64,000 nucleotides of DNA, from NCBI GenBank assembly GCA_964594985.1, contig CAZQNQ010000018.1, forward strand, positions 22,548-86,547, given 5' to 3'. Every line of letters starts with the position of its first letter. Position 1 is the first letter of the stretch. Source of the DNA: an uncultured Bifidobacterium sp. Its GTDB lineage: Bacteria > Verrucomicrobiota > Verrucomicrobiia > Limisphaerales > JADLHS01. Below are positions 12,483 to 63,010 of the stretch, piece after piece. A program made the position numbers and the translations under genes. The notes beneath the pieces were generated by a model. It saw nothing but the letters and a program-made list of their open reading frames with translations. It was not told the DNA's origin and ran no database searches.

Positions 12483-15023
12483 TCAACGCCGCCGGCCCCC
12501 GCCCCCGCCGCGCATGCCGCCGCCTTGAAAAGCCGGGCGACTGTTCTGAAAACTCTGCTGCCGTTGCGCGCCCATCTGGCGGGCGCGATTCTCATTGTCC
12601 AACGACTGCCGTTGCTGCGGCGTGACGTTGGACTGTTGCCACTGCTGCGGCTGGGCGGCGGTTTGCGGCTGCGTGACCGGACGAGTGCTGGGTTGCGGTT
12701 GCGTGACTGGTCGGGCGCTGGGTTGTGGCTGTGCAGCCGGGCGGGCGTTAGGGACGTTGCCACCACTGCCCGGGCGCGCGACCTGTTGCCAACCGCCGCT
12801 GCCGTCCGGGCGATAATAATTTCCGTCCTTGCCGGCGATGATGTGGCCGTTCACGTTGACCACCCCGCCTTGCTCGCCCCGCACGCCGCCGATCTGCGTG
12901 GTGTTGCCGGTGTTCGGATTGTAAACCGTCGCGCGGCCGGCGCTGCCTTGATTGCCGGTGGCTTCGTTGCCCCAGGTGACCTTGCCTCCGACGGCGGCGG
13001 CCCCGGTCTTCTCATTGTAAGCCGCCCCGCGCCCGCCATAGGCGTAGTTGCCCGTGTAAACATTTTCCACCGCGCTGCGTTGGCCGACGACGCGCGTGCC
13101 GGTGGTGGAATTGTACGCGCGCCCGTACTTGGTGGCCCATTGATTGCCGGTCCACGCGTTGTAACCCGCCGCGCCCCGCGACACGCCGGTCCACGCGCCG
13201 TTCTGATGGTAGATGTAGCCGGACGTCCCCGCCCAGCCATACGGCCCCCAAGCCGTGACCCCGCCGTACGCGTTGTAGTAAGCGCCGTAACAGGAATACC
13301 AATACGGCCCCCAATACGGGGCCGGCGGACAATAGCACCACCAATAGTAATCATCGTAACTTGACCAACACACCGAGTAGCCGAACGCCCACCCGGCCCA
13401 CGGCGTCCAGCAGGGATTGCAGCCATACCCGTACGAAATCGGGTAGGCCACATAGGTCGTCGCGCCGACATACGCCGGATAATAATAGCCCGTGCCGTAA
13501 ACCACCGTGCCATCCGAGCCGACCATGGCCCCGTAATAACCCGGCGTTGTGCCGACCCAGACGAAGTCTTCATCAAAATTGTAGATGCGAACGTAGGTCA
13601 CATAGTGCAGCGGCGCGCTCGGCGGGATGGAATAGATCGCCGCCGGCACATTCGTCGCCACCGCCCACGGACCGGTGGCCGCGCCCGCCACCCACCACAC
13701 GCCGCTTTGACAGGCATACCAGGCGTCGCCGTCCATTTTGATCACGGGCGTCGCACAATTGACCACGTAATGCAAGGGCGTGTCGGCAATCGGCTGCAAC
13801 TGCGGGTTGCCATCGTAAGTCGGTACCGGCTCGAGTTTCGCGTTCTTGCGATCCACCTTGATCGTGTGCGGGATGTTGTTGGCGATGAGGGCTTCCTGCG
13901 CCTGCTCCGTGTCGGGCACGGACGCCTTCACGTTTTCCTTGGGACTGTCATCCGGGATGGCGGCAAAATCCTTGGGCAACTGTCCGGCGGGCACAAATTC
14001 CCACGGGCCCGCAAACGTCCCGGCCCGGAACCAACGCCCCGAGATCAGCACGTAATTCTTCTGATCCCCCAACGCTTTGAAGACCTGCGCCGCCGTGTTG
14101 GTGGCGTAGAGCAGTTGGGTCGGCGGCAGCGGCGCCCATTGCGGCTCGCCCTGCAACACGATCAACTCCGTCGGCGTCGTGGTGATCAGCAACTCCGGCA
14201 CCGGCGTGGTCTTGAGCGACGGCTTTTGTTTCGTGTCGGGATGCTCCTGTCCGGCGAGCAGGTCCACTTGTTTGGCATCCACGGCCAGCCGTTGGGCGGT
14301 GCGCAAGGCCACGGGAACATTCGTCACCACAGTCCACGGCCCGGCGAGGGTTGGGGCGGTCACATAACCATCGAACAGGTGCAGGTAAAATGGACCGGAC
14401 TTCTGCCGGACGATAAGGGCGCGGGTGTTGAACATCCGCTCGAAGTCCGTGCCCGGCACGGGCCGATAAACGGGTTGCCCTTCCACCGGCACCAACATCG
14501 CCGGCTTGGTGCGGAACAAAATCACCGGCGGCTCGTTCCGCAACGGTTGCCCGGCGGATTTCTGGCGCGCTTCCAGAATGGCGAGACTCGCTTCGAGCCG
14601 GTCGAGCGCGATGCTCCGCACTTCGGTCGGCAGCAACGAGCGCAGCGTTGCCAGGTATTTTTCCGCCGGCGCGTCGTCCGAGGGAAAGTCCGCTGACGTG
14701 ATTTCCAGCCGCTCAAACAAGACCTCGCGCTCGGCGCGATCCACCTGCGTCTGCGCCGTGAACCGGATCGTGCCAAACGTGGCCTGCCGCGCGCCGACCG
14801 GCTGGATGGCGACGGCGGAAATGGCCTTGAATGTGAAGTAATCCCAGGACTCCAACTGCGGTTGGTAAATCGTGTTGGTCACGTCATCCCGCACGATGAC
14901 CCGCGGCCATTCCAGCGGCACGGCTTCCTCGGATTGACCGAAGGCATTTCCGCCAGAGCCCGGCACCAAGGCCAGACTCAACCAGCCGGCAAGTTTGAGG
15001 TGGAGGTGAAATCGGTTTTTCAT
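12483..15023 (-). CDS. Large secreted protein with Tyr/Trp/Gly/Cys-rich low-complexity region and PQ-repeat, Arg/Gly tail; function unknown
   Basis: Signal peptide MKNRFHLHLKLAGWLSLALVPGSGGNAFG. Central YYYPAYVGATTYVAYPISYGYGCNPCWTPWAGWAFGYSVCWSSYDDYYWWCYCPPAPYWGPYWYSCYGAYYNAYGG. Repeated G-x-N/T-x-W/Y-TG motifs. C-terminal ARPAAQPQPSARPVTQPQPSTRPVTQPQT...GGGMRGGGGGRRR. Confidence 0.7.
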   Translation of the reverse strand: MKNRFHLHLKLAGWLSLALVPGSGGNAFGQSEEAVPLEWPRVIVRDDVTNTIYQPQLESWDYFTFKAISAVAIQPVGARQATFGTIRFTAQTQVDRAEREVLFERLEITSADFPSDDAPAEKYLATLRSLLPTEVRSIALDRLEASLAILEARQKSAGQPLRNEPPVILFRTKPAMLVPVEGQPVYRPVPGTDFERMFNTRALIVRQKSGPFYLHLFDGYVTAPTLAGPWTVVTNVPVALRTAQRLAVDAKQVDLLAGQEHPDTKQKPSLKTTPVPELLITTTPTELIVLQGEPQWAPLPPTQLLYATNTAAQVFKALGDQKNYVLISGRWFRAGTFAGPWEFVPAGQLPKDFAAIPDDSPKENVKASVPDTEQAQEALIANNIPHTIKVDRKNAKLEPVPTYDGNPQLQPIADTPLHYVVNCATPVIKMDGDAWYACQSGVWWVAGAATGPWAVATNVPAAIYSIPPSAPLHYVTYVRIYNFDEDFVWVGTTPGYYGAMVGSDGTVVYGTGYYYPAYVGATTYVAYPISYGYGCNPCWTPWAGWAFGYSVCWSSYDDYYWWCYCPPAPYWGPYWYSCYGAYYNAYGGVTAWGPYGWAGTSGYIYHQNGAWTGVSRGAAGYNAWTGNQWATKYGRAYNSTTGTRVVGQRSAVENVYTGNYAYGGRGAAYNEKTGAAAVGGKVTWGNEATGNQGSAGRATVYNPNTGNTTQIGGVRGEQGGVVNVNGHIIAGKDGNYYRPDGSGGWQQVARPGSGGNVPNARPAAQPQPSARPVTQPQPSTRPVTQPQTAAQPQQWQQSNVTPQQRQSLDNENRARQMGAQRQQSFQNSRPAFQGGGMRGGGGGRRR
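12660..12749 (-). repeat. 3 x 30-bp tandem repeat inside the CDS (encodes RPxxQPQPSx units)
   Basis: ggtttgcggctgcgtgaccggacgagtgct / gggttgcggttgcgtgactggtcgggcgct / gggttgtggctgtgcagccgggcgggcgtt. Confidence 0.8.
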
Positions 15024-15068: not shown

Positions 15069-16310
15069 TCAGGGGCGGAACCACGCGCTGCCGAATTGGA
15101 TATAGATCGCAACGTCGTCCGGGCCGACCGCGACGTCCAGCCCCATGTGCAAACCGTGCTTGCGCGCAATCTCGTAACGAAAACCCACGCCGCCCGTCAC
15201 CACGGTGCGTTCGCTCTCGAAGCGCTCAAAATCATTCCAAGCGACGCCCGCGCCGGCAAAGCCGATCAGACTGAAGCGGCCCCAGCATTGCCAGCGCAGT
15301 TCGAGTTCCGCATCGGCCGCGTGTTCACCGACGTAGCGCCGCACCGCCGCACCGCGCAGATGGACATACGGCCGCGTGTAGAACGGGACGTCATCGAAAC
15401 TGAAAAAGCCCTCGGTCTTCAGGCTCAGCGTCAGTTCTTCCGCCAGCGGATGATAATAGAGCAGCGTCAGGCTGGCGGTTTCGTAATTGAAATCGCTGCC
15501 CACCACTTCGTTGAACACCCCGCCTCCGACTTCGGCATAAATCCCCTTCGTGGGCGTGAAGAGATTGTTGCGGGAATCGTAGATGAGCTTCGGCGTCAGT
15601 CCGGCGAGGAAGGAGTCCATTTCCGGCGGCGTCACCCCGGGCGGCAGGCTGCCGGCATCAAAGCTGACGTTGGCATCGCCAAAAATATAGCCCACCCCGA
15701 CACGCCAGGGAGATTGGCCGAGCCGATAGCGCCCCTCCACGTTGGCGCCCGTGAGTTCGATGTTGTAGCCCAGCGGATTGGCGGCCTGCCCGGTGTCGCC
15801 AATGCCATAGAAATCCAGATTGATGGAGCCGGTCATCAGCCCGACCTGCGTCTCGAACTGGCCCTCCTGCCAGTTGCCGATGTGCCCGGCCAGCAACGCC
15901 CAGGAACCGTTCTCCGTCGCCATGCCCCCGGCCACCGTCATGTTCGGCTTGCGATAACTCCCATCGGGGTTGGGTTCCCCGCGATCAATGAAAATCAATC
16001 CGAGGGTGCCGCCATAACCGACCGCCGGCTCCGTGATGGGCATGAAGATCGGCACGAAGCCATAGATCGTGTCCAGAAATTCGCCCACATCCAGCATGCC
16101 ATCCTCCCGATCGAAAAGACTCGGGGCGGGGGCATTGGTGGCGGTGGAAGGGATCTGGTTAGTAGCGCCCGGTGAAACGGCGTCTGCTGTTGCCCGGTTC
16201 GTTTGCGCCCAAGCCGATTGCGCCGCACCCAACAATAGAACCATCAGCGCAATCCCAAGTCCGCGGGCGAGGAACTCCAGCGATAACCGGTAATGCTGCG
16301 GGCACGTCAT
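15069..16310 (-). CDS. Omp85-superfamily outer-membrane beta-barrel (surface-antigen/BamA-like barrel) without recognisable POTRA domains
   Basis: Signal peptide ...LLLGAAQSAWAQ. Barrel motifs YDSRNNLFTPTKGIY, VPFYTRPYVHLRG, GGVGFRYEIARKHGLHMGLDVA; C-terminal aromatic FGSAWFRP. Only about 60 aa lie between the signal peptide and the barrel. Confidence 0.75.
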   Translation of the reverse strand: MTCPQHYRLSLEFLARGLGIALMVLLLGAAQSAWAQTNRATADAVSPGATNQIPSTATNAPAPSLFDREDGMLDVGEFLDTIYGFVPIFMPITEPAVGYGGTLGLIFIDRGEPNPDGSYRKPNMTVAGGMATENGSWALLAGHIGNWQEGQFETQVGLMTGSINLDFYGIGDTGQAANPLGYNIELTGANVEGRYRLGQSPWRVGVGYIFGDANVSFDAGSLPPGVTPPEMDSFLAGLTPKLIYDSRNNLFTPTKGIYAEVGGGVFNEVVGSDFNYETASLTLLYYHPLAEELTLSLKTEGFFSFDDVPFYTRPYVHLRGAAVRRYVGEHAADAELELRWQCWGRFSLIGFAGAGVAWNDFERFESERTVVTGGVGFRYEIARKHGLHMGLDVAVGPDDVAIYIQFGSAWFRP

Positions 16311-21496: not shown

Positions 21497-21619
21497 AAAC
21501 ATACAATGCTGCGACTGCATTCGACTGGTTTCCTCGCCGGCGACCCAGTGCTGATACAACCACACTTGAATCGGCCAGAAGAGACGGCGGGTTCAGGCCC
21601 GCCGCTGTTGATTTACGGC

Positions 21620-21648
21620 ACCTTAGCCACTTGGCTGGGCAGCGTCAA
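21620..21648 (-). promoter_or_regulatory. Candidate sigma70-type promoter (minus strand) for the SBP gene, just downstream of repeat D1
   Basis: Minus-strand reading: TTGACG (21648-21643), 17 nt spacer, TAAGGT (21625-21620). Confidence 0.3.
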
Positions 21649-21668
21649 AAACTATATCGTAACGCGGA

Positions 21669-21772
21669 GTGTGACTGGAACTGCCGCTCACCGCCGCGAT
21701 TCTTAATCGTAATCTTAATCTTGTTCTTAATCTTCAGGCCCGGGAGATTAAGATTAAGAAAAAGATTAAGAG
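21669..21772. repeat. About 100-bp repeat 'D' copy 1 (G+C-rich head plus TTAAGA/TCTTAA-rich hairpin)
   Basis: gtgtgactggaactgccgctcaccgccgcgattcttaatcgtaatcttaatcttgttcttaatcttcaggcccgggagattaagattaagaaaaagattaagag. About 90% identical by eye to 33408-33505, in the same orientation. Confidence 0.85.
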
Positions 21773-21796
21773 CGCGTAATAAAAAGACCGTTGCGG

Positions 21797-21869
21797 GTAG
21801 GGCGCGCCAGTCCCTGCGCGCCGTTCCGTGCCAGTCAGCCGCCGGCGCGCAGGGACTGCCGCGCCCTAC
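21797..21869. repeat. Long G+C-rich hairpin (26-bp arms, 1 mismatch)
   Basis: GTAGGGCGCGCCAGTCCCTGCGCGCC (21797-21822) versus GGCGCGCAGGGACTGCCGCGCCCTAC (21844-21869). Confidence 0.8.
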
Positions 21870-21922
21870 CTGCCACAGCAAAAAGTTCATTTTGTTACAG
21901 GCTCTAAGCCGAATCCATGCAG

Positions 21923-22084
21923 TTGGAACAGGCAAACAGAGAAGACCGAGAGTAGCGAAGTCAGATATTCGACGTTGTTACTCCAGTTCCGGAGCCACTG
22001 TTTTGTGGCTGCCGGACTTCGTCTCAAACCGTCCAGGCCCGCATCGTTTCCGGCTCTGTTTTCTCCGTTCCCTCCTGTTCAAAA
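21923..22084 (-). repeat. E-type palindromic repeat, copy with about 100-nt central insert (intergenic)
   Basis: Arms ttGGAACAGGCAAACAGAGAAGACCGAGAG (21923-21952) and GGCTCTGTTTTCTCCGTTCCCTCCTGTTCAAAAG (22052-22084) match the arms of the copies at 62498-62602 and 63011-63099. Confidence 0.5.
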
Positions 22085-22246
22085 GAATCGTTCCGGCTAA
22101 GAGCAAAAGCTGCGCGACAGTTCCAGTCGCATCCCGTGACGCGCGCCACCGCACACGGCGGCTTGACCTTTTGCGGCTGGTCGTCATGATTCGCGCCGTG
22201 ATGAAACCTCATCACCCAACTCCGACCGACGCCCAATCCGCCGCCT

Positions 22247-23245
22247 ATGATCACCGTCGCCGTCTTTGACACCAAACCTTACGACCGCGAAGCGCTGCAA
22301 CAGATCGCCACCCCCGGCATCGCGTGGCACTTCCTCGACTTCCGCCTGACGAAAGAAACCGCGCCGTTGGCCAAACCCGCCCGCGCCGTTTGCGTGTTCG
22401 TCAACGACCAGTTGAACCGTCCCTGTCTCGAAGCGCTCGCGGAGCAAGGCGTCGAACTCATCGCGCTCCGCTGCGCCGGCTTCAACAACGTGGACCTCGC
22501 GGCGGCGAAAGCACTCCAACTCACCGTCACCCGCGTGCCCGCTTATTCGCCGCACGCCGTGGCCGAACACGCCGTGGCGTTGCTGCTGGCGTTGAACCGC
22601 AAGATTCATCGCGCCTACAACCGCGTGCGAGAACAAAACTTTTCGCTGCACGGCCTGGTCGGATTTGATCTCCACGGCAAGACCGCCGGCATCATCGGCA
22701 CGGGCAAGATCGGCCGGCTCGTCGCCCAGATCCTGCGCGGCTTCGGCATGACCGTGCTCGCCTACGACCCGTTTCCCGCGACCGACTGGGCGCAACAGCA
22801 CGGAGTGACTTACGGAGACGCCCGCACCCTCATGCAAAACAGCGATGTGGTTTCGCTCCACCTTCCGCTGACGCCGGAAACCAAACACCTGATCCGCGAG
22901 GAGACTCTGGCGGTGATGAAACCCGGCAGCGTGCTCATCAACGTCAGCCGGGGCGCGCTGATTGATACGACGGCACTGATCGCCGCGCTCAAGTCCGGAC
23001 AACTGGCGGGCGTGGGTTTGGACGTCTATGAGGAAGAGGAAGGAATTTTCTTTGAAGACCTGTCCGGCCAGGTGTTGCAGGACGATGAACTCGCCCGGCT
23101 GCTCACGTTTCCCAACGTGCTGATCACCGCGCACCAGGCATTCCTCACGCGCGAAGCCCTCGCGGAGATCACCCGCGTCACCGTCGCCAACCTCACCGCG
23201 CTCGCCGCCCGCACCGCGTTTGTGCCGGGGTCGGTGTTGACCTGA
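22247..23245 (+). CDS. ldhA: D-lactate dehydrogenase (D-isomer-specific 2-hydroxyacid dehydrogenase)
   Basis: Collinear with E. coli LdhA as I recall it: MITVAVFDTKPYDREAL..., LRCAGFNNVDLAAAK, RVPAYSPHAVAEHAVALLLALNRKIHRAYNRVREQNFSL, GKTAGIIGTGKIGRLVAQILRGFGM, NVSRGALIDT, TAHQAFLTREAL. Confidence 0.9.
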   Translation: MITVAVFDTKPYDREALQQIATPGIAWHFLDFRLTKETAPLAKPARAVCVFVNDQLNRPCLEALAEQGVELIALRCAGFNNVDLAAAKALQLTVTRVPAYSPHAVAEHAVALLLALNRKIHRAYNRVREQNFSLHGLVGFDLHGKTAGIIGTGKIGRLVAQILRGFGMTVLAYDPFPATDWAQQHGVTYGDARTLMQNSDVVSLHLPLTPETKHLIREETLAVMKPGSVLINVSRGALIDTTALIAALKSGQLAGVGLDVYEEEEGIFFEDLSGQVLQDDELARLLTFPNVLITAHQAFLTREALAEITRVTVANLTALAARTAFVPGSVLT

Positions 23246-23356
23246 AATGTTTTGAGGAACTTGAAGCGCACGCGTAAAGCACCGAAACTGCCAAGAACGC
23301 CAGCCGCCCCGGCCTCAGGCATTCACTCCCCGGCCACTAAATCAGGGCAAGGCCAC

Positions 23357-24448
23357 TCAGCGCCTGAACCGCTCTGCCACCGCTGAATTGGTGGTGATGG
23401 CCAGGCTGAAGTATTCCCCAGCAGCTATCGCAGCCACATCGCTCAAACCTGCTGGCACTCCATACTTGGTCCTCGACCCATGCCCCCAAACAACCACATT
23501 CCCATCTGCTTTTAGTGCCATGCTATAAGCTTGGCTGGCGGCGATAGCCACAACATTCGTTAACAGCTGGCCCTCAATCATAACTAAGCCACTGGCTCTG
23601 CATTCAGGGTCCGCATGCACCTTCCCGTTAATCACCACCAACCCGCGAGCTTCGTTCTCAATGTCCGCCTTAGACTTCTGTTTTGTCCGAATCCCAGTTG
23701 CTTGTCCATAATCATTGGCACCCCATCCGAAAACCGTCCCATCACGTTTCAAGGCGAGGCTATGATTCCGACCAAGCGCGGCAGCAACTACATTGCTCAA
23801 CGAAGTTGGAGGCCGCAAATCAGGCATATCCAACCCTGGCGTCCAACCAATTACACCGCCATCCGACAAGATCGCAATACTACGCTCAGTCGCATCACCG
23901 GCAGAGGCAATTCCCACGACATTACTAAACTCGACACTATACTTGTCTGGCATCGGCCAACTGACTATGCGCCCACTCTTTGTCAGCGCTGAACTGCGCA
24001 TGTGGCCCGTTGCAATTGCAACGACGTCTTTCAAGTCAAGTGGTGGCCCAATAGGCGTTTTCTTTCCTAACGGTTTTGACCCCCAACCTACCACCGTTCC
24101 GTCATCTTTGAGTGCCATGCTGTAGTCATGTCCGGCGCAGATTGACACAACATTAGATAACCCTGACGGCACGGTTGCCTGCCCAGAATAATCAGAACCC
24201 CAACCATAAACGTGGCCGTCTTGACTAAGTGCCAGTCCGTGCGCCGTGCCTGCCGCTACTTGAACAATGTTACTCAGCTGGACACTTGCTATATGCACTG
24301 TTCCTGTTGCTGGTTTTGCAATCCCGTCGTCGCCAACGCACCGCCCCCACATCACGACGCTCCCAGATACAGCCCCCAAAACGCACCAACACGAAGAAAG
24401 TATAAACAAAGCGACCAAAGTGATAAACATAACCAGTTGGGATTTCAT
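23357..24448 (-). CDS. RCC1-repeat (beta-propeller) protein with N-terminal signal/anchor
   Basis: About 7 repeats of the type HSLALKRDGTVFGWGANDYGQATG, HGLALSQDGHVYGWGSDYSGQATVP and YSMALKADGNVVVWGHG. N-terminal MKSQLVMFITLVALFILSSC. G+C lower than the flanks. Confidence 0.8.
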   Translation of the reverse strand: MKSQLVMFITLVALFILSSCWCVLGAVSGSVVMWGRCVGDDGIAKPATGTVHIASVQLSNIVQVAAGTAHGLALSQDGHVYGWGSDYSGQATVPSGLSNVVSICAGHDYSMALKDDGTVVGWGSKPLGKKTPIGPPLDLKDVVAIATGHMRSSALTKSGRIVSWPMPDKYSVEFSNVVGIASAGDATERSIAILSDGGVIGWTPGLDMPDLRPPTSLSNVVAAALGRNHSLALKRDGTVFGWGANDYGQATGIRTKQKSKADIENEARGLVVINGKVHADPECRASGLVMIEGQLLTNVVAIAASQAYSMALKADGNVVVWGHGSRTKYGVPAGLSDVAAIAAGEYFSLAITTNSAVAERFRR

Positions 24449-24655
24449 AACGACTATTACTGCTCCACTGTAGTGACAGCGTCCAAGATTCCCCGGCGTG
24501 CTGTTATTCCAAACTTCGTAATTGGAACAAGCGCCATGAAACTCCCACCTTTAACTCCGGGCAAGACCAATTTTGCCAAAGTCTCATCATCTTTGGCTTC
24601 TGCCGCTTAGAGTGTACTGCAAAAAGAATGTCGGAAACGGGGGACTGGCAAAACG

Positions 24656-24717
24656 CCCCTCACCCCGGCCCTCTCCCCATCCGATGGGGAGAGGATGGCC
24701 GCAGGCCGGGTGAGGGG
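24656..24717. repeat. Palindromic 'PSDGER' repeat, copy 2 (intergenic)
   Basis: CCCCTCACCCCGGCCCTCTCCCCATCCGATGGGGAGAGGatggccgcaggCCGGGTGAGGGG. Both the inner and outer stems are intact. Confidence 0.85.
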
Positions 24718-24829
24718 TTTTCTCATCTCAACCCGGAAATTATTTCTGAGAACCAATCTAGGCGTTTCGCTCGACACGAACTGCATGAAGACAGACATTG
24801 GAGACCAAGAAACTTACCGGGCGTCACGG

Positions 24830-24859
24830 TTGACTTGCGTCGCGGCAGTTCGATAGGCT
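24830..24859 (+). promoter_or_regulatory. Candidate sigma70-type promoter for the second Omp85-like gene
   Basis: TTGACT (24830-24835), 18 nt spacer, TAGGCT (24854-24859), giving a very short leader before ATG 24868. Confidence 0.25.
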
Positions 24860-24867
24860 TTCAGCGC

Positions 24868-26106
24868 ATGGCAAATACCTCGCGTCGCCTGCCCCGTCTT
24901 TTCCTCAAAACGACTGGTTCGGTTTTCGTCTCAGTCGTTTTATTTTCCAACCCGACGCCCGCTCAAGAAGGCACGTCCCGGAATTCTTACGCTGATGGGG
25001 CGGCGCCATTGCTGACCATGCCCGGGGCGGATGCGCCGGAGCGAACAGGAGCCGGCGATATCGTTGACTCAAAGCCACCGGCGTCTGACCCGGCTTCGAC
25101 CAACAAGAACGAATTCCTGGTTGCTCCCATCCCATCTTACAAGCCGACCTTCGGGTTTGGCCTACAGGTGATGGCCGGTTACCTCTTCGCGGTGGATCCA
25201 GAGGACAAAGTTTCGCCCCCCTCTTCGGTCATGTTGATGGGATACGCTGCTGAGAACGGGTCCTGGCTGGGAGGGTTCGGGAGCCGGTTCTTCTTGAAGG
25301 AAGACCAGTATCGCCTGATCGGCGGCGTCTTTACCGGGCGCTTGAACTACGACTACGCCGGCGTGGGAACCGACGCCGGCGATAGCGGGCGAACCGTCCC
25401 GCTGGAACAAAACATGACGGCGGTGATTCTTGAACCGCTGACTCGGATTGCGCCGCATCTGTACCTCGGCCCCCGGTATCTTTACGCCAACATGCGGACG
25501 ACGGCGGATCTCGCCTCCCTCGGTAATCCGGCGCTCCCGCCCCAGGTGGAGCGGGAGTCACTCCAGTCCATGATTGGTGCCCATCTCCAATACGACACCC
25601 GCGACAGCGTTTTTAACCCCCGCAAAGGAATGCTCGTTGACTTTCACGCCGATTTTCACGACCGGGCCTGGGGCGACGATTTTAACTACCAGGTGTATAA
25701 GCTTTATTGCAACCAATACTTTTCCCTGGGCGAGGGGCAGGTGCTGGCCGTGCGCGCCGCCGCCCAGGTGTGCGCCGGTGATGTCCCGTTCTATTCTCTG
25801 GCGACGATTGGGCGGGGGCCAGACTTGCGCGGCTACGAGTATGGCCAGTATCAGGACGAAACGCTGCTGGCCGCCCAAGCCGAATACCGGCTTCGACTGA
25901 CCAAACGGTTCGGCGTGGTGGGCTTTGCGGGCGTTGGGGCCGTCGCTCCTTCGCTGTCCGATTATTCGGCAGATGATCTTCTACCCAGCGTCGGCGCGGG
26001 CTTGCGCTATGTCTTGGCGGTGAAAAATCAAATCTCCATGCGACTCGACTATGCTTATGGCCGGGATGGCGGGAAATTGTATTTCACCGTGGGCGAGGCT
26101 TTTTAG
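24868..26106 (+). CDS. Omp85-superfamily outer-membrane beta-barrel without recognisable POTRA domains (paralog of 15069-16310)
   Basis: ATG 24868 (MANTSRRLPRLFLKTTGSVFVSVVLFSNPTPAQ); the track start 24628 lies in the repeat. YDTRDSVFNPRKGML, VPFYSLATIGRGPDLRGY, GAGLRYVLAVKNQISMRLDYAYG, C-terminal YFTVGEAF. Confidence 0.75.
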   Translation: MANTSRRLPRLFLKTTGSVFVSVVLFSNPTPAQEGTSRNSYADGAAPLLTMPGADAPERTGAGDIVDSKPPASDPASTNKNEFLVAPIPSYKPTFGFGLQVMAGYLFAVDPEDKVSPPSSVMLMGYAAENGSWLGGFGSRFFLKEDQYRLIGGVFTGRLNYDYAGVGTDAGDSGRTVPLEQNMTAVILEPLTRIAPHLYLGPRYLYANMRTTADLASLGNPALPPQVERESLQSMIGAHLQYDTRDSVFNPRKGMLVDFHADFHDRAWGDDFNYQVYKLYCNQYFSLGEGQVLAVRAAAQVCAGDVPFYSLATIGRGPDLRGYEYGQYQDETLLAAQAEYRLRLTKRFGVVGFAGVGAVAPSLSDYSADDLLPSVGAGLRYVLAVKNQISMRLDYAYGRDGGKLYFTVGEAF

Positions 26107-26261
26107 CCACTACCCAGGCGGAGGTCGTGCTGCCGATTAGAGCATTTTAATTTTTTCCATAGCCTCAAAAATTCACAAAAACCTCAAACTACTGCTTTGA
26201 TTTGTGCTTTTTGTGCCTCTTTGCGGCTCCAGTTTTAATTAAACAGCTATAGATGGCGCAG

Positions 26262-26420
26262 TCACGCGCGAAGCCCTCGCGGAGATCACCCATGTCACCA
26301 TCGCCAATCTCACCGCGCTGGCCGACCGCACTCCCGTTTGTGTCCAGATCAGTGTTTGACTTGAATTGTTTCGGGGAACTCCGCGCGCTTGCGTAAAGCA
26401 CCGAAGCCGCCGGGAAGGCC
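26262..26420 (+). pseudogene. Relic of the ldhA 3' end plus its downstream flank (second copy)
   Basis: The first 30 nt (tcacgcgcgaagccctcgcggagatcaccc) are identical to 23145-23174. Similarity (about 80% by eye) continues past the stop codon to gcgtaaagcaccgaa. The relic encodes TREALAEITHVTIANLTALADRTPVCVQISV*, versus TREALAEITRVTVANLTALAARTAFVPGSVLT* in ldhA. Confidence 0.75.
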
Positions 26421-26507
26421 ATTGACCGGGCTCAACATTCCGATCCTTTCTTGGCTCAGACTAACACTACACGGCCCGAAAAAGTCGAGTCACGTCAATA
26501 ATTTGAA

Positions 26508-26738
26508 TTAAAGGAATATCCGGCTAATCCCAATGCAAACATCAATGATTAATGGCCATAATGAAGAATCGCTTTGCTTTTCTTCATCAGCACTTAAAAT
26601 TTGTTCTTCAGATTGTTTTCTCAGCCCCTCTTGGCCTTCTGGTTCTGGTGGAAGCGCAGCACAACCAATGCAGATGCAACAAATACAAGAACAGCAAACA
26701 GCTTGAAATGCCATTCGGATCTTGACCGCCGAAATCAT
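26508..26738 (-). CDS. Hypothetical small Cys-rich membrane protein (ORFan, low G+C)
   Basis: 76-aa ORF with MAFQAVCCSCICCICIGCAAL (7 Cys in one hydrophobic helix), an acidic middle, and a second hydrophobic stretch LWPLIIDVCIGISRIFL. Starts 21 nt after the upstream gene stop. Codon signal is weak. Confidence 0.3.
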   Translation of the reverse strand: MISAVKIRMAFQAVCCSCICCICIGCAALPPEPEGQEGLRKQSEEQILSADEEKQSDSSLWPLIIDVCIGISRIFL

Positions 26739-26758
26739 ACGCTTCGTTCTGAGTTTGC

Positions 26759-27163
26759 TTAACGCTCTTTCATCAAATTCTCACGATTTGCACCAGCCAC
26801 GTCAGTCTTCCATGCTTCTACAACTTTCCAACCGCCATCTTTATCGAGCTGCTCCAATGTGAACCAATAAATGCTGTTTTCCTCGGCGATCTTCTCCATC
26901 TGCAGTATCAATCTAACTGGATATTCAATCATTGTCTTCCCGCCTTCCAACTTGCTGGATCGAATGATGCCATGGTCATCAGGTTTGAAGCCTGGCAATT
27001 GTCCCCCCTTTGCAAGTTTGATGGAGTAGTTGGCTGCATCTACGAACAACACAACCATGGGATCGCGCTTAAGGTCTTTTGCGTTCGGCTTGGAAGCACT
27101 GCAAGCACCCCAAAAAACAATCCCGAATATAAGAATAAAAAAGGCGCAAATTTTTATTTTCAT
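26759..27163 (-). CDS. Hypothetical small lipoprotein (ORFan, low G+C)
   Basis: MKIKICAFFILIFGIVFWGACSAS (lipobox-like). 134 aa, no family recognised. Lies in a clearly A+T-richer stretch (about 26430-27200). Confidence 0.5.
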   Translation of the reverse strand: MKIKICAFFILIFGIVFWGACSASKPNAKDLKRDPMVVLFVDAANYSIKLAKGGQLPGFKPDDHGIIRSSKLEGGKTMIEYPVRLILQMEKIAEENSIYWFTLEQLDKDGGWKVVEAWKTDVAGANRENLMKER

Positions 27164-27279
27164 AAATCACTGACCTCCCCCCGAGAATCAGGCCGGAGTT
27201 GAGTTGAGAGTGAGCTGCAACCTCGGCTGGACCTGGATAAAGCTGCGGAGCCGAGGCCAGTGGCCCCGGCTCCGGTCGC

Positions 27280-28089
27280 TCAATATTTTTCCGCCACGAA
27301 CTTGCGGCCTTTCAACGACCCTTGATCGTCATACGAGCCTTTCATCGAGCGTTTGGGCAGCTCGATCTTTTCGCGCGGCACTTTCTTATAGGGGATCAGG
27401 CTCAGGATGTGCCGGATGCCATTGAGCCGGGCGCGCTTCTTCTCGTCGGAACGCAGGATGTACCACGGCGCCCATTTCGTGTCCGTGGCCTTGAGCATGA
27501 TGTCGCGGGCGCGGGAATACTCGAACCACTTGGTGCGCGACGGCAGATCCATCGGACTCAATTTCCATTGGCGCACCGGGTCGGTGATGCGTGCCTCGAA
27601 CCGCCGCTTCTGTTCCTTGTCGCCAACCTCGAGCCAGAGCTTGATCAGGATGATCCCGCTATCCACGATGAACTTCTCCACCTCCGGGCAGCGCTCCAGA
27701 AACAAATCATGCTGCTCCTTCGTGCAGAAGCCCATCACGTGTTCCACGCCGGCGCGGTTGTACCAACTGCGGTCGAAGATGACGACCTCGCCCGCCGCCG
27801 GGAAATGCGCCATGTAGCGCTGGATGTAGATCTGCGACTTCTCACGATCCGACGGCGCGGGCAACGCCACGACGCGGAAGACACGTGGGCTGACCCGTTC
27901 GGTGAGCGCGCGGATCGTGCCGCCCTTGCCGGCTCCATCGCGCCCCTCGAAAATGATGATGACGCGCAGACCCTTGTGCTTGACCCAATCCTGGAGCACG
28001 CACAACTCGCCCTGCAGTTTGCGCAATTCCTTTTCGTATTTCTTGGTCTTCAGTTTCTTGTCGCCGTCCGTCTCGGTGTCTTTACTCAT
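27280..28089 (-). CDS. ppk2: Polyphosphate kinase 2
   Basis: KYEKELRKLQGELCVLQDWVKHKGLRVIIIFEGRDGAGKGGTIRALTERVSPRVFRVVALPAPSDREKSQIYIQRYMAHFPAAGEVVIFDRSWYNRAGVE is the canonical PPK2 block. Confidence 0.9.
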   Translation of the reverse strand: MSKDTETDGDKKLKTKKYEKELRKLQGELCVLQDWVKHKGLRVIIIFEGRDGAGKGGTIRALTERVSPRVFRVVALPAPSDREKSQIYIQRYMAHFPAAGEVVIFDRSWYNRAGVEHVMGFCTKEQHDLFLERCPEVEKFIVDSGIILIKLWLEVGDKEQKRRFEARITDPVRQWKLSPMDLPSRTKWFEYSRARDIMLKATDTKWAPWYILRSDEKKRARLNGIRHILSLIPYKKVPREKIELPKRSMKGSYDDQGSLKGRKFVAEKY

Positions 28090-28159
28090 AATTTTTTCCA
28101 GTTCCTGGTTCGTTCGATTTGGTTGCTGTGGCCATCATCATTCATTCCACCCCGGACCG

Positions 28160-30043
28160 TCAACGACTCAAGCGGGGATGGGTCATGTTCTCCGGTTTCA
28201 ACAGTTCATCCAGCTTGTCTTTGGTCAACCAGCCTTTGGCGATGACGAGATCATAGACGCTGCCGCCGGTCTTGAGCGCTTCCTTGGCGATGGCCGCGGA
28301 TTTTTCGTAGCCCAGCACCGGGTTCAAGGCGGTGACGAGGCCGATGGAATTCTGCACGTACTCGCGGCAGCGCTCGCGGTTCGGCTCGATCCCGGCAATG
28401 CACCGCGTCGCGAGCACGATGGCCGCGTTGCGCAACAGCGTGAGGCCGAAGAACAGATTAAACGCGATGATCGGCTCGGCCATGTTCAACTCCAGTTCAC
28501 TCGCCTCGGAAGCCATCGAAACCGTCACGTCGTTGCCGATGATCTGGAAACAGATCTGGCTCACGACTTCGGGCACGACGGGATTCACCTTGCCCGGCAT
28601 GATGGACGAACCGGGCTGCATCGCGGGCAGGCGGATTTCGTAGAGACCGCAGCGCGGACCGGACGAAAGCCAGCGGAGGTCGTTGCAAATTTTCGAGAGC
28701 TGCACGGCGGCGGTCTTCATTGCGCCGCTCATGAGCGAGAACTCCCCCGAGTCCTGGGTCGCTTCGACAAGATTCTCCGCGAGACGCACGGGCGCGCCGG
28801 AAATTTCCGCCAGCTTCCGCGTGCAGAGCGGCGCGTAGCCCGCCGGACTGTTCAACCCGGTGCCGATCGCTGTCGCCCCCATGTTGGTTTCGAGCAACTC
28901 GGTGCCCGCGTGATCAAGGTGGCGGATGCCATCGCCGATCATCACGGCGTAGGCGCTGAATTCCTGGCCGAGCGTCATCGGCACGGCGTCTTGATTTTCC
29001 GTGCGGCCCATCTTGATGACGTCCGCAAACTCCTTCGCCTTGGCTTCGAGCGCGGTCTTGAGTTCGCGCAAGCCGCCGAGCGTGTCGCGCAGGGTGAACC
29101 AGACGCCAAGCTTGATCGCGGTGGGATACGCGTCATTGGTGGACTGCGAGCAATTGACGTGATCGTTCGGGTGACAGAACTGGTATTCGCCTTTCTTGTC
29201 CCCGAGCAATTCGAGCGCACGATTGGCGATGACTTCGTTGGCGCACATGTTCGTCGAAGTGCCGGCACCGCCCTGGATCATGTCCACACAGAACTGGTCG
29301 TGCAGTTTGCCCGCGAGAATTTCGTCGCACGCCTTGGCGATAGCGTCAGCAATCTTGCCGTCGAGCACGCCGAGTTCGGCGTTGGCCACAGCACAGGCCT
29401 TCTTCACACACGCGAGGGCCCGGACAAAATGTTCGTAATGCCGGACGTGGATGCCGGAGAAGGGAAAGTTCTCAATCGCGCGGATGGTCTGCACGCCGTA
29501 GTAAGCGTAATTCGGCACATCGCGTTCGCCCAGCGAATCGTGCTCGCGCCGAGTATCGGAAAGCACGGGCGCCCCGGCCTCCTTGGCGAGCCGCTCGGAA
29601 GCCGCGCGCAACCGGTCGCCCATCCGGCGGGCGACCTGCCCGACGAGCCGATAAAAAATCTCCGGGGTCGCGGCGCGCACCGCATCCAGTTCCGCCCGGG
29701 AAATCTGCCAGATGGTCGTGCCTTGAGTCGTCCGCCCGGACGTGCCGTGCGGCGTGTCATCCAGCATCACGCCTTCACTGAGGATGGCACCGGGTTGCGC
29801 CACGCCGAGGAGCACGCTGTTGCCGTGCTGACCGCGCACCAGTTCAACTTCGCCTTCGATCACCAACCCCAGCCACTGGCGTGGCGCGGATTCATGGAAG
29901 AGATAATCGCCGGCTTTGTAAGTGACCGCGGCGCCGCGCTCGGCAACGGCGGCGAGTTCTTCCGGCTTGATGCCGATGCGTTGGGCGGCGGAAGCAATGG
30001 TGTTGGAATCGAGTTTCATGGTTTCAAAGGAGGTTTGGTTCAA
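28160..30043 (-). CDS. aspA: Cyclic-nucleotide-binding domain fused to aspartate ammonia-lyase
   Basis: N-terminal ~150 aa are CAP/cNMP-like (VTYKAGDYLFHESAPRQWLGLVIEGEVELVR...ISRAELDAV). The remainder is collinear with E. coli AspA: EHDSLGERDVPNYAYYGVQTIRAIENF, GGAGTSTNMCANEVIAN, NCSQSTNDAYPT, GSSIMPGKVNPVVPE (AspA-type signature). Confidence 0.85.
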   Translation of the reverse strand: MNQTSFETMKLDSNTIASAAQRIGIKPEELAAVAERGAAVTYKAGDYLFHESAPRQWLGLVIEGEVELVRGQHGNSVLLGVAQPGAILSEGVMLDDTPHGTSGRTTQGTTIWQISRAELDAVRAATPEIFYRLVGQVARRMGDRLRAASERLAKEAGAPVLSDTRREHDSLGERDVPNYAYYGVQTIRAIENFPFSGIHVRHYEHFVRALACVKKACAVANAELGVLDGKIADAIAKACDEILAGKLHDQFCVDMIQGGAGTSTNMCANEVIANRALELLGDKKGEYQFCHPNDHVNCSQSTNDAYPTAIKLGVWFTLRDTLGGLRELKTALEAKAKEFADVIKMGRTENQDAVPMTLGQEFSAYAVMIGDGIRHLDHAGTELLETNMGATAIGTGLNSPAGYAPLCTRKLAEISGAPVRLAENLVEATQDSGEFSLMSGAMKTAAVQLSKICNDLRWLSSGPRCGLYEIRLPAMQPGSSIMPGKVNPVVPEVVSQICFQIIGNDVTVSMASEASELELNMAEPIIAFNLFFGLTLLRNAAIVLATRCIAGIEPNRERCREYVQNSIGLVTALNPVLGYEKSAAIAKEALKTGGSVYDLVIAKGWLTKDKLDELLKPENMTHPRLSR

Positions 30044-35810: not shown

Positions 35811-36467
35811 TCAAAACGCTGACGACACGGACACCACCCACGTCGGATCATCTTCATCCGGGTTCAAGGCATACGCGGTCACATCCACCCGCTTGATCGT
35901 CGCTCCCAGCAACAGACCCCGCTGGATGTCCCGGTCGCTGTCATAAGCCCGCGTGCGTTGGGTCACCACCCCGAACCGGAACCATGGCACCGGGGCGAGC
36001 GTCAGTTCCGACCAGTTGTAAAAATAGCTGTCGTCCGAATCGCTCGTGCTGAACAACTGTTCGCCTTCGCTGTACAACATCAGCTTCCACCAGCGCAACG
36101 ACCCGCGATAACCCAGTGCGCCCCCATCCACATCGCCGACCACCCAGCCCAGCATCGGCGTGATCTGCCACTTCAACTCGTCTCCGCCGGCGAAACCATA
36201 CCCCGCCCATAATGAAGCGGTATCCTGGGCTTCGTAGTTGTAGCGCCCCTCGAAATGCCAGCGCCCATAGTCCGCCGTGACGGTCGGCTGGACGTAATCG
36301 TCCTGGTCCGGCACCACGTAGGCGTAAGCCGACACCCCGAACGCCCATTTGTTCCCGGTGACTTCGTCCATGGCTTTCGTGCTGGCTTGCGCGGCAGTGC
36401 TTTCGTCTGCCCACACTGGAGCGGTAGAAAGCAACAAGCCGGTTAAGATGACATTTAGTTTTCGCAT
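35811..36467 (-). CDS. Small outer-membrane beta-barrel protein (hypothetical)
   Basis: ATG 36467: MRKLNVILTGLLLSTAPVWADE signal peptide. Aromatic-girdle-rich strands; C-terminal VVSVSSAF. Confidence 0.55.
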   Translation of the reverse strand: MRKLNVILTGLLLSTAPVWADESTAAQASTKAMDEVTGNKWAFGVSAYAYVVPDQDDYVQPTVTADYGRWHFEGRYNYEAQDTASLWAGYGFAGGDELKWQITPMLGWVVGDVDGGALGYRGSLRWWKLMLYSEGEQLFSTSDSDDSYFYNWSELTLAPVPWFRFGVVTQRTRAYDSDRDIQRGLLLGATIKRVDVTAYALNPDEDDPTWVVSVSSAF

Positions 36468-36483
36468 AAATTTGATCCCAAGT

Positions 36484-37146
36484 TTATCCACCCAAAGCAA
36501 TCGTGAGGCCCACCAATACGAGCCCCAACACCACCATCCCCACCCCGAAGCCCATGGGCGCGCGCCCCACGCAGCGGCCATAGGCGATTCCGGCCAGGAA
36601 CAACATCAGGACGGCGACCAGATTCGACACGCGCATCGCGTGATCGGCTTGCTGAATAAAGATGAACGGCAGCGCCACCGGCAGCGTGGTCAGGAATACC
36701 AACAAGAACACCCCCAACGCCCCCCACCAATCGGTGCCGCTCAAGCTCACCCGCTCCGGCGGTTCGGGCAATTGCTTCAACCGCTCATGAATCGCGGCGA
36801 ACTCCGCCGGCTGCACCACCGACGCCACCAACGGCGGCAACGCCCCCGCGATCAGGGTCGCCGCCTGATGCGGTGCGGTGGCCTGACGCACAGCGCGAAA
36901 GATCTTGAGATTGCGCCCCTTGTTGGCCAGACACGCCATGAGATACAGCACGCCATCAATGATCCCCCAGGCCAGATTGCAACCGAGCGCGCCGATCAAC
37001 ATGAGGCGGACTTCGGAACGTTCGGCGGTAGCGACGCTGAGCGAACCGGTGAACGTGAGCACCATGATCAGTCCGAACAGCACCTCGGAAATGCGTTCCG
37101 CTGGTTCGAGGACCCGTTTGGAAGAACTCATGTGATCGTTGCTCAT
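36484..37146 (-). CDS. VIT-family-like integral membrane protein (putative Fe/Mn transporter)
   Basis: RISEVLFGLIMVLTFTGSL...IGALGCNLAWGIIDGVLYLM plus 3 C-terminal TM helices. This resembles proteins I recall as annotated 'VIT family'. The call is tentative. Confidence 0.5.
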   Translation of the reverse strand: MSNDHMSSSKRVLEPAERISEVLFGLIMVLTFTGSLSVATAERSEVRLMLIGALGCNLAWGIIDGVLYLMACLANKGRNLKIFRAVRQATAPHQAATLIAGALPPLVASVVQPAEFAAIHERLKQLPEPPERVSLSGTDWWGALGVFLLVFLTTLPVALPFIFIQQADHAMRVSNLVAVLMLFLAGIAYGRCVGRAPMGFGVGMVVLGLVLVGLTIALGG

Positions 37147-37296: not shown

Positions 37297-38082
37297 TTAC
37301 ACGGATAGATGCCGGCGGCGAGCTGAAGAAAGCATGATGACACCAGCCAGAGCGAGCATTGCCGCACTGGCCGGCTCGGGAATGATGTTGCTCACCCGGA
37401 TGTTATCCACCGCGTAATTTACATGCCCTGCTGACGATTCGACGTGGAACAGCAGTTGGCCGTTGTTATGGTTGTTAAACACGTTGCCCGTGATGGCCAG
37501 CCCGGTCAAAGTCGCCGTGGACTGAACCACTCCAAGTCCATTCAATTGGGAAACGGTCGCTGAATAAGTGGCGGCGACGGGATTAACAATGAACTGGAAG
37601 AAATAAGGGACGCCAACGGCCAGATCCACATCGAGCGCTTCCCAACTGGTGCCATCAATGGCTTCCAAAGCCGACGCAATTCCGGCGTTGTAAATCAAAC
37701 GGATGCCGGCCGCGTACTCCCCATAAGTTCCATCCATGACATAAAAACTCCCGCTGGCCGGCACCCCGCCGGGATTCGCATCCATTTGCAGCAACAAGGA
37801 GATTTCGTAAGCCGCCGTTGCCACGTCAACGCCCGCCGTGTTATTCCTAAAATCCCGGTGCGCTTCCTGACCAAACTCCGTGGAAGCCTGGGCCGCCTGG
37901 TTGCCACCGACCGAAGTATTCATAAACCCCGGCGCGTTAGCATCAAATTGTCCCGGAGCCACCCAATCCGCGCCCCAGTTCGAGGTGTCTTCGCCGACCT
38001 CGAAGGTCTGCACCAAGGTTTGCGCCGGGGCATTGATTGCAACCATTGTGACCAGCAGACAACAAGCATTTATCAGTTTCAT
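37297..38082 (-). CDS. PEP-CTERM sorting-domain secreted protein
   Basis: Signal peptide MKLINACCLLVTMVAINAPAQ. C-terminal IPEPASAAMLALAGVIMLSSARRR. Confidence 0.85.
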   Translation of the reverse strand: MKLINACCLLVTMVAINAPAQTLVQTFEVGEDTSNWGADWVAPGQFDANAPGFMNTSVGGNQAAQASTEFGQEAHRDFRNNTAGVDVATAAYEISLLLQMDANPGGVPASGSFYVMDGTYGEYAAGIRLIYNAGIASALEAIDGTSWEALDVDLAVGVPYFFQFIVNPVAATYSATVSQLNGLGVVQSTATLTGLAITGNVFNNHNNGQLLFHVESSAGHVNYAVDNIRVSNIIPEPASAAMLALAGVIMLSSARRRHLSV

Positions 38083-52812: not shown

Positions 52813-52847
52813 AACTCTTTGCTCCCTTTGCGTTCTTCTGTTTCCAC
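52765..52847 (-). repeat. F-type palindromic repeat at the GxxExxY-1 / DUF58 junction
   Basis: Minus strand: GTGGAAACAGAAGAACGCAAAGGGAGCAAAGAGTTATGAACTCCAGTTCGCCTTCGCTATCTTCGCGTCCTTCTGTTCAAACC. The loop holds TGA (52811-52809) of GxxExxY-1, overlapping ATG (52812-52810) of DUF58. Confidence 0.75.
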
Positions 52848-53309
52848 TTTCGTTCCAAACCCGCCGCCGTCTGCGCCGGGGAGGATGAGCCGATGAATCC
52901 CATCGACAAGACGGGCTTCGTGAAAGTTGATGAGCAGCCCCAGCGGCGCATTGAGGAGCTTCATGTAACTCAGCAACTGCGCTTTGTGGATGGGAAGAAC
53001 TTTTTCCACGGCTTTTAGTTCGAGGATGAGGCAATCGCCCACATACACGTCCAGCTTCAAAGGCTCATCGAAAATGAAGCCTTTGTATTCGACCGGAACA
53101 ATCAGTTGTTGTCGTGCTGGAATATTTTGCAATGACAACTCTCGCATCAAGCACTTCTCGTAAATGGATTCGACCAGGCCCGGCCCTTTCTCGCGATGCA
53201 CTTCAATCGCCGCGCCGATGACCTTGCGGCTCAACTCGTCCGCGCGTTTGAATTTTGGATGCACAGCTTGAACAGAAGAACGCAAAGATCGCGAAGGGGT
53301 CTCATTCAT
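52809..53309 (-). CDS. GxxExxY protein (PD-(D/E)XK nuclease-like fold), copy 1
   Basis: KVIGAAIEVHREKGPGLVESIYEKCLMREL (G-x-x-E-x-x-Y) and D...ILELKAVEKVLPIHKAQLLSYMKLLNAPLGLLINF (E-x-K). ATG 53309. The ORF is also open in-frame up to ATG 53348, which overlaps the moxR stop. Confidence 0.85.
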   Translation of the reverse strand: MNETPSRSLRSSVQAVHPKFKRADELSRKVIGAAIEVHREKGPGLVESIYEKCLMRELSLQNIPARQQLIVPVEYKGFIFDEPLKLDVYVGDCLILELKAVEKVLPIHKAQLLSYMKLLNAPLGLLINFHEARLVDGIHRLILPGADGGGFGTKVETEERKGSKEL

Positions 53310-63005: not shown

Positions 63006-63010
63006 GGAAT

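Follow-up and report, generated by a model that had tools for sequence, protein, structure and literature searches.

How did the end of a gene come to lie a second time some 3 kb beyond the intact gene, with unrelated genes in between? The question is raised by a 64,000-nucleotide (nt) stretch of contig CAZQNQ010000018.1 (hereafter the window, meaning the whole stretch that was analysed), in which an ldhA-like gene for a D-2-hydroxyacid dehydrogenase is followed by a gene with RCC1 repeats, a gene for an Omp85-type barrel protein and a decayed copy of the 3′ end of ldhA. The initial annotation had described this layout as a single 3-kb insert and as the footprint of an integration into the 3′ end of a gene. 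We find that the displaced tail is real and old, and that it represents a known kind of event and not a new kind of system.

The duplicated end of ldhA

The ldhA gene (positions 22247-23245, plus strand) is intact and encodes 332 amino acids (aa; Pfam 2-Hacid_dh_C, 2e-58, and 2-Hacid_dh, 8e-30), and it forms the left core gene of a hotspot of gene flux described below. Copy A of the repeat (23145-23302, plus strand) consists of the final 101 nt of ldhA and the first 57 nt of its 3′ flank, while copy B (26262-26421, plus strand) holds the displaced ldhA sequence from 101 nt before the stop codon (-101) up to the stop, followed by 57 nt of native flank. Alignment of the two copies gave 81.9% identity over 160 columns with 2 one-base indels (BLAST E ~4e-38 in a 5.8-kb search space), the match being collinear over 160 nt and extending beyond the stop codon, with 57 nt of flank inside it. 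The initial annotation had estimated about 80% identity by eye, had noted that the first 30 nt are the same in both copies and that the similarity passes the stop codon, and had asked whether the alignment would prove significant; the coordinates and the extent agree with ours, the first 30 nt are identical in the window (30/30) and the E value settles the matter of significance. Read in the ldhA frame, copy B gives VTREALAEITHVTIANLTALADRT and then goes out of frame, and it is therefore a non-functional, frameshifted relic. Chance or low-complexity similarity, for which the G+C-rich composition is the sole point in favour, carries next to no weight as an explanation, and it is already refuted by the E value, by the collinearity over 160 nt past the stop and by orthologous relics in two other genomes.

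Relatives that inform on the locus were obtained by exact-protein look-up of closer LdhA homologues (332 aa, 88-95% identity), which led to syntenic contigs, here given as L numbers; a scan of species-representative genomes with LdhA returned nothing closer than 78% identity and no synteny, and it was of no use for the junctions. In L118, a close relative of L082, the relic (8252-8463) begins at -101, the very base at which the window relic begins, and reaches +110 from the stop codon; it lies behind the same junction, ATNAGATGGCGCAG. In L082 the relic (13169-13394) spans about -72 to +155 and ends within the last 17 nt of a neighbouring gene of the type seen in L086; its first 30 nt are missing and have been replaced, as has the spacer in front of it. 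Since copy A in the window keeps its flank to +110 and the L118 relic also reaches +110, the original duplication covered at least -101 to +110. It was thus no shorter than 211 nt, of which 110 nt or more belong to the non-coding native flank.

This native flank occupies 110 nt in the window (23246-23355, plus strand) and is homologous to the ldhA flank of L086 as far as window position 23343; the DNA that flanks the relics in L082 and L118 matches it up to 23355/23356. Across lineages the non-coding flank (window 23246-23355; L086 11000-11137; L118 8354-8463) is about 84-86% identical, a level comparable to that of coding DNA. The window segment had no Rfam match and folded no better than shuffled sequences, and neither an RNA family nor a fold accounts for the conservation of this 110-140-nt flank.

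The relics of the window and L118 are 86.6% identical, while divergence at 4-fold degenerate sites between these lineages is 0.11-0.20 and identity between the functional and the relic copy within one genome is 82-85%. The distance rankings of ldhA and of the Omp85 gene agree, with L082 and L118 closest and the window further away. Because the relic identity falls in the range of lineage divergence and the two rankings are congruent, the sequences are consistent with one insertion that dates from the common ancestor of these lineages or from somewhat earlier. L118 has the relic and its junction too, and the event is therefore ancestral and predates the RCC1 gene and the present cargo of the window. 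Both relics also carry derived bases of the clade (AATCTC, CAC-CCC) that are missing from L086, L083, L089 and L103, so that the clade itself, and no distant element, was the source of the duplicated copy.

Within the 30-nt start of the repeat, the L118 relic shows 2 differences from the window and 7 from the functional gene of L118, and this lack of conservation shows that the stretch is not a recombination core. We also considered that the 30-nt start was a recent patch on an older relic, given that the L082 relic begins where the identity ends, but this was disproved by the L118 relic, which holds the stretch behind the same junction. Some bases appear to have been swapped between copies and lineages: the window relic carries the A/G/GAC states of the functional allele of L082 and L118, and the L118 relic carries the GACAAC of the functional allele of L102 (about 4-6 mosaic sites in all, in few sequences), which suggests gene conversion or allelic exchange. 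The further idea that the junction itself is degraded ldhA from further upstream was dropped, as the similarity was not significant. As for a microhomology at which an illegitimate joint could have formed, a 9-nt match (TGCTGATCA) of the L118 junction with ldhA positions -127 to -119 reached only P ~0.05 against shuffled sequences, and there was none in the window.

The gap between ldhA and ppk2 in relatives

The right core gene of the locus is ppk2 (polyphosphate kinase 2; 27280-28089, minus strand; Pfam PPK2, 3e-93), which is convergent with ldhA and beyond whose stop codon homology to the relatives ceases after 3 nt. The genes upstream of ldhA (SBP_bac_3, DUF2959, DUF4136 and hydrolases) are conserved in five lineages (L082, L083, L086, L089 and L118), and ppk2 is conserved downstream in L082, L083, L086 and L089; in L118 it was not found within 8 kb. 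What lies between the two core genes differs from one relative to the next. In L089 the gap is empty, with ldhA and ppk2 25 nt apart, and in L086 and L087 it holds a 138-nt flank and one 262-aa gene. L083 and L084 have an ISL3 transposase fragment and a DUF7832 gene at this position. In L082 the gap contains a 168-aa gene, the Omp85 gene, the ldhA-tail relic and a 216-aa gene, and in L118 a 167-aa gene, the Omp85 gene and the relic are followed by a two-component/sulfatase block in place of ppk2. In L102, ldhA is followed after 72 nt by the Omp85 gene, inside which the contig ends. The cargo proteins bear no relation to one another.

Because the site is empty in L089 and the cargo differs from relative to relative, we regard the gap between the convergent ldhA and ppk2 as a hotspot of gene flux in this Verrucomicrobiota (Pedosphaerales-like) lineage. 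The uninterrupted site that the initial annotation had proposed to look for in related genomes thus exists, as the 25-nt gap of L089, while L086 has only ldhA, the 138-nt flank and one gene. Both L083 and L086 gained other cargo in the same gap, and no relic was left there. The initial annotation had also named a pair of full ldhA paralogs in relatives as the finding that would speak for decay of a tandem duplicate; no second full ldhA is present in L082-L089, L102 or L118, and decay of a tandem paralog is therefore not indicated.

The block behind the relic in L118 (8464-16208) contains a PAS-histidine kinase, two response regulators, a sulfatase and a second paralogue of the hydrolase, a content that indicates a larger rearrangement or insertion on the right side of the hotspot.

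Make-up of the insert

An old and shared part of the insert is an Omp85 module (24761-26111, plus strand) composed of a 107-nt leader, the barrel gene (24868-26106) and 5 nt beyond it, with sharp ends that recur in other genomes. The protein matches Pfam Omp85 (5e-17), and its AlphaFold model (predicted local distance difference test score, pLDDT, 80) has a signal helix, a disordered segment at residues 27-77 and a barrel at 82-408, the top Foldseek matches of which are the TamA and BamA barrels (E 2e-12). No POTRA domain was found in it, since in the model residues 27-77 are disordered and no domain precedes the barrel. The profile match and the model thus bear out the earlier description of the cargo gene, which is predicted to encode a barrel of the Omp85 superfamily without POTRA domains.

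The 1351-nt unit recurs at 91-94% identity, next to ldhA in L082, L118 and L102, and also elsewhere, between a histidine kinase and a catalase gene in L090-L099 and with other flanks in L101. Its ends, 5′ ...TGGYYNGGCG and 3′ ...TTTTAGCCACT, are the same in three unrelated contexts (L090 5894-7244; L101 168-1524; L102 2488-2949; window 24761-26111). They coincide with the functional limits of the gene, namely its promoter region and its stop codon. Inverted repeats and a consistent target duplication are both missing from the module ends, the folds of leader and end are no stronger than those of shuffled sequences, and the module has no recombinase; at its other locations no duplicated target brackets it. 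A scan of metagenome contigs with the Omp85 protein returned a single contig of 2.3 kb.

The G+C content at third codon positions (GC3) of the Omp85 gene is 0.70, which is intermediate when compared with the core value of 0.78 ± 0.03. At 4-fold degenerate sites the gene has diverged about 0.6 times as much as ldhA and ppk2, a ratio seen in every genome pair (for example, 0.125 compared with 0.199 and 0.198) despite its weaker codon bias. A recent horizontal exchange of the Omp85 gene between the window and L082, which the lower divergence might have suggested, was dropped, as the ratio to ldhA stays constant from pair to pair and the rankings agree. Two further candidates did not hold: a hypervariable slot travelling with the Omp85 gene in L090-L099, where the contigs turned out to represent one population differing only in tandem-repeat copy number, and an upstream Omp85 paralogue (15069-16310) as the source of the module, which is only 27% identical. 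This paralogue, which all relatives have, belongs to a conserved cluster with alpha/beta-hydrolase genes upstream of ldhA.

Between the native ldhA flank and the Omp85 module lies an RCC1 fragment (23355-24524, minus strand) that is strain-specific and comprises a lipoprotein-like gene with RCC1 repeats (23357-24448) and 76 nt. The gene is the lower-G+C, minus-strand gene of the initial annotation, with a G+C content of 0.53 and a GC3 of 0.51 (z = -10 relative to the core), and the fragment is compositionally foreign. Its counterpart in L104 (714-1886, 85.8% identity) has the gene in another operon, and the 76 nt match the 3′ end of the gene that lies upstream at this donor-type locus. The retention of 76 nt of a foreign upstream gene means that it is a cut-out fragment and not a cassette. 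The fragment is absent from L082, L118 and L102, and an identical copy was found only in the short contig L081, which stems from SRR16797999; its position is occupied by an unrelated 168/167-aa gene in L082/L118 and by only 72 nt in L102. Viral contigs gave only RCC1-repeat protein matches of 23-28% identity.

The spacer between the RCC1 fragment and the Omp85 module (24525-24760) contains a palindromic repeat (24655-24720) that resembles repetitive extragenic palindromes (REP-like) and forms a hairpin of -53 kcal/mol (z = -3.2). This is the 'PSDGER' repeat of the initial annotation, which is present and represents the translated palindrome: read as protein it gives a 'PSDGER/GEDGRRPGEG' motif, and it artificially lengthens the Omp85 open reading frame (ORF) upstream to 24628. 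The element is GC-rich, about 65 nt long and dispersed, with more copies at 2584-2644 and 63712-63776 (90-92% identity) and also in L103, L008 and L090.

At the other end of the Omp85 module, the ancestral junction with the relic is split in the window. Its left half (26112-26135, plus strand) is common to L118 8209-8240, and its right half, ATAGATGGCGCAG (26249-26261, plus strand), abuts the relic and is also common to L118 (ATCAGATGGCGCAG). Between the halves lies an AT-rich insertion of 113 nt (about 26136-26248, its ends being ambiguous by 5-6 nt) that is specific to the window and flanked by ATTAGA / ATAGA. It holds the A/T-rich imperfect palindrome that had been placed at the junction with the relic, and this does fold as a hairpin (26160-26235, z = -2.6). 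In L118 the insertion is missing and the junction halves are joined directly; no other copy was found in the window or in any fetched locus. The insertion could be terminator-like or resemble a miniature inverted-repeat transposable element (MITE).

A low-GC segment (26422-27276, minus strand; G+C ~0.45; GC3 0.50, z = -11) lies outside the repeats and carries a lipoprotein-like gene of 134 aa (26759-27163). The 134-aa protein had no Pfam or NCBIfam match and no homologue in any fetched locus, and L082 carries the unrelated 216-aa gene where the window has this one. The compositional analysis that had been proposed did not place an island between the repeats, as low-GC DNA runs past the relic as a separate acquisition and the compositional anomaly neither begins nor ends at the repeats. 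On the evidence of the GC3 values (0.51 for the RCC1 gene, 0.70 for the Omp85 gene and 0.50 for the 134-aa gene against 0.78 ± 0.03 in the core), the insert is a patchwork in which these three genes are separate acquisitions of different ages. The notion of a single 3-kb island between the copies thus has to be given up, the RCC1 fragment being strain-specific and the Omp85 module older and shared.

The window also contains other elements outside the insert. Upstream of ldhA, positions 21698-21876 hold an AT-rich hairpin (TCTTAATCTT) and a GC-rich hairpin of 34 nt; similar hairpin sequence occurs in L086 (9776-9885 and 13229-13368), also downstream of ppk2, and therefore represents another dispersed hairpin family. 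A Fic/DOC-family gene (8707-9816, GC3 0.59) stands between a fumarase gene and a beta-lactamase-family gene, and L086 has SMI1/SUKH and ParE-like genes beside its fumarase gene; the fumarase-adjacent site may be a second variable slot. Two paralogous genes of the PD-(D/E)XK nuclease family (PDDEXK_3; GC3 0.58-0.60) are located at 52809-53348 and 62604-63086, one of them about 600 nt from a copy of the REP-like repeat.

Mechanism and significance of the displaced tail

We looked for the machinery that could have moved such DNA. No tRNA gene was found in the window, and no integrase or transposase was detected by Pfam in 28 selected ORFs between 0.5 and 40.5 kb, which agrees with the earlier statement that none of the three is present; these included the called ORFs of 6.8-38.1 kb minus 38 short or overlapping ones (such as 21631-22269), and three of the 28 (493-1365, 35811-36581 and 37297-38082) matched no Pfam family. 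There were no recombinase genes among the genes called within 8-10 kb on either side in L082 and L118. The 4-kb region gave no match to plasmids and phages, and the Omp85 and 134-aa proteins had no relatives in viral contigs. Neither the whole insert nor the Omp85 module has the terminal inverted repeats or target-site duplication of a transposon, insertion sequence or MITE; only the 113-nt AT-rich insertion combines a hairpin with a 5-6-nt flanking repeat, and it is single-copy. Features of an integron cassette were also missing, with no attC-like structured end on the Omp85 module and no integrase in the scanned ORFs. An Rfam search of 21500-28500 produced only spurious matches of microRNA families to the palindromes upstream of ldhA. 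The absence of a recombinase nearby, together with a long duplication that carries bases of the clade, points to homologous or illegitimate recombination and not to site-specific integration.

From what is observed at the locus, namely a repeat with a junction common to L118, an empty site, differing cargo, a composite make-up and no recombinase, we infer a mechanism and an order of events. We favour, with a probability of roughly 55%, an insertion driven by recombination and independent of an integrase, which would have displaced the ldhA tail and been followed by repeated remodelling. In the ancestor shared with L118 and L082, incoming DNA would have carried both the Omp85 module and a copy of the ldhA tail with its flank (at least -101 to +110). 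Housekeeping recombination could have inserted it through a single crossover of a circularised fragment (Campbell-type) or through homology-anchored illegitimate joining, and an ends-in event would fit as well. The insertion would have kept ldhA intact and left a second, useless copy of its tail downstream of the Omp85 gene, and each lineage would then have remodelled the locus independently. In the window, the 1.17-kb RCC1 fragment from another operon would have entered between the native ldhA flank and the Omp85 module, the 113-nt AT-rich hairpin would have entered the junction between Omp85 and relic, and the space between the relic and ppk2 would have received the low-GC 134-aa gene. Short patches were probably swapped between the two copies of the ldhA tail by gene conversion. 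Two features of the locus suit this reading. The relic, taken as the old 3′ end, lies downstream of the Omp85 gene behind a junction common to L118, and, taking the window, L118 and L082 together, both copies contain the segment from -101 to at least +110, in direct orientation.

Several points weigh against it. The mechanism is read solely from structure, and the same topology would result from a Campbell crossover, from an ends-in event or from site-specific integration with a long mimic of the target. Neither a circular intermediate nor a donor with the exact pre-insertion arrangement was found. In L082 the spacer that separates the Omp85 gene from the relic has no homology to its counterpart in the window and L118, and the first 30 nt of the relic are missing, so that a further rearrangement has to be assumed in this lineage. 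The swapped diagnostic sites call for gene conversion or allelic exchange and number only about 4-6. An integrase could also have been lost since the event.

This last point leads to the account closest to the initial annotation, in which a tyrosine or serine recombinase would have put a circle into the 3′ end of ldhA, the replacement tail representing attL and the old tail attR, and the integrase and most of the element would later have been deleted with the Omp85 gene left behind. The order of gene, insert and displaced 3′ end with a sharp left boundary, which is the same in the window and L118, the direct repeats bracketing the insert, the target gene intact at 332 aa, the empty site in a relative and the 30 identical nt in the window all agree with such an element. 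We nevertheless consider it unlikely. No recombinase was seen in the 28 ORFs of the window or in the surroundings in L082 and L118, and there is no short conserved core, as the homology of at least 211 nt reaches at least 110 nt into non-coding DNA that matches the native flank of L086, and nothing would maintain a mimic of this kind. The clade-specific derived bases are in both copies, which places the origin of the second copy in this clade, and the 30-nt 'core' is unconserved in the L118 relic and missing in L082. Other relatives took up different cargo at the gap without a relic, and the insert is not present or absent as one unit, the RCC1 fragment being found only in the window and L081 and the Omp85 module in L082, L118 and L102. 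What stands of the earlier interpretation is that a displaced 3′ end was left by an insertion, as the empty site in L089 attests; site-specific integration is unsupported.

An origin of the relic within the clade and the lack of mobile-element genes would equally be expected if the DNA from ldhA position -101 through the Omp85 gene had been duplicated in tandem locally and most of the second copy then lost, leaving only the tail, a structure that is indistinguishable from the product of single-crossover integration. This course of events, however, needs more steps (a prior Omp85 gene next to ldhA, the duplication and a precise loss of the second Omp85 gene), and no relative has a second Omp85 gene, a longer ldhA fragment or an intermediate, the relics of L082 and L118 holding only the last 72-101 nt of ldhA. 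The flank behind the relic in L082 moreover runs into the native neighbour of the L086 type and not into a second copy of the cargo, and we rate a tandem duplication as improbable, if anything a little more so than a decayed integrative element. We give still less credence, and only a small chance, to the Omp85 module being a small mobile cassette that repeatedly enters related genomes through a homology arm in the ldhA tail and makes the relic anew each time. The 1351-nt unit with the same ends in three unrelated contexts speaks for it, as does the 4-fold divergence of the Omp85 gene, which is below that of ldhA and ppk2 (P = 0.02-0.04), and the chimeric window relic, with a start like that of the L118 relic and a middle like the functional allele of L082 and L118, would fit an independent crossover. 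On the other side, the ends show no inverted repeats, consistent target duplication or structure and coincide with the functional limits of the gene, the distances rank as those of ldhA with a constant ratio of about 0.6, as a rate difference combined with vertical descent would produce, and elsewhere the unit is not bracketed by a duplicated target. The same slim odds apply to its most specific form, in which the unit of promoter-bearing leader and gene would be a recombinase-less mobile module re-entering by a RecA-mediated single crossover via the ldhA tail as a 'homing arm'; if this were true, the relic would be a recurrent by-product of homology-guided gene spreading and not a one-off scar.

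Integrase-independent recombination, the reading we prefer, has precedents in known systems. Many hotspots of horizontal gene transfer have no mobile-element genes and turn over their content via recombination at flanking core genes (Oliveira et al. 2017, PMC5635113). The gap described here resembles them in its two conserved flanks (ldhA and ppk2), in its unrelated accessory genes in each lineage with one lineage empty, in the lack of an integrase and a tRNA gene, and in a turnover that is best explained by recombination using the flanks, which is suggested here only by a handful of mosaic sites. It differs from them in that a scar, the duplicated gene tail, was kept, whereas a simple double crossover leaves none, and at least one event at this site was therefore not plain allelic replacement. 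Displaced gene 3′ ends in rhs genes and in the effector-immunity arrays of the Vibrio type VI secretion system have been attributed to homology-facilitated illegitimate recombination (Kirchberger et al. 2017, PMC5361080). As in those systems, the incoming DNA would have been anchored in a conserved part of the gene and would have brought a new 3′ end and cargo, with the old end surviving downstream as an orphan; unlike there, the old tail and its replacement share one sequence (82% identity) where those systems have alternative toxin tips, a single orphan is seen and not an array, no logic of immunity retention applies, and the duplicate includes non-coding flank.

The Campbell-type integration of suicide plasmids likewise leaves the homology segment twice in direct orientation, with the left copy on an intact gene and the right copy on native downstream DNA, as seen here. 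In contrast to suicide plasmids, this locus is not known to have plasmid or replicon functions or a circular form, and the circle would have been an accidentally circularised chromosomal fragment. Integrative elements and prophages insert into the 3′ ends of protein-coding genes with a replacement tail, e14 in icd of Escherichia coli being an example. The locus shares with these the order of gene, element and displaced tail and the preserved gene function, and it differs in that no integrase was found, the duplicate extends far into the non-coding flank and the content is a patchwork of ages.

These results carry a consequence for annotation, namely that the relic ought to be labelled a pseudogene fragment and that the genes for the RCC1, Omp85 and 134-aa proteins should be treated as three separate acquisitions of different ages. 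A duplicated gene tail by itself does not identify an island of the integrase type. For the uncultured soil and freshwater Verrucomicrobiota, the locus provides a clean and datable example of how accessory genes accumulate between convergent core genes without recognisable mobile machinery.

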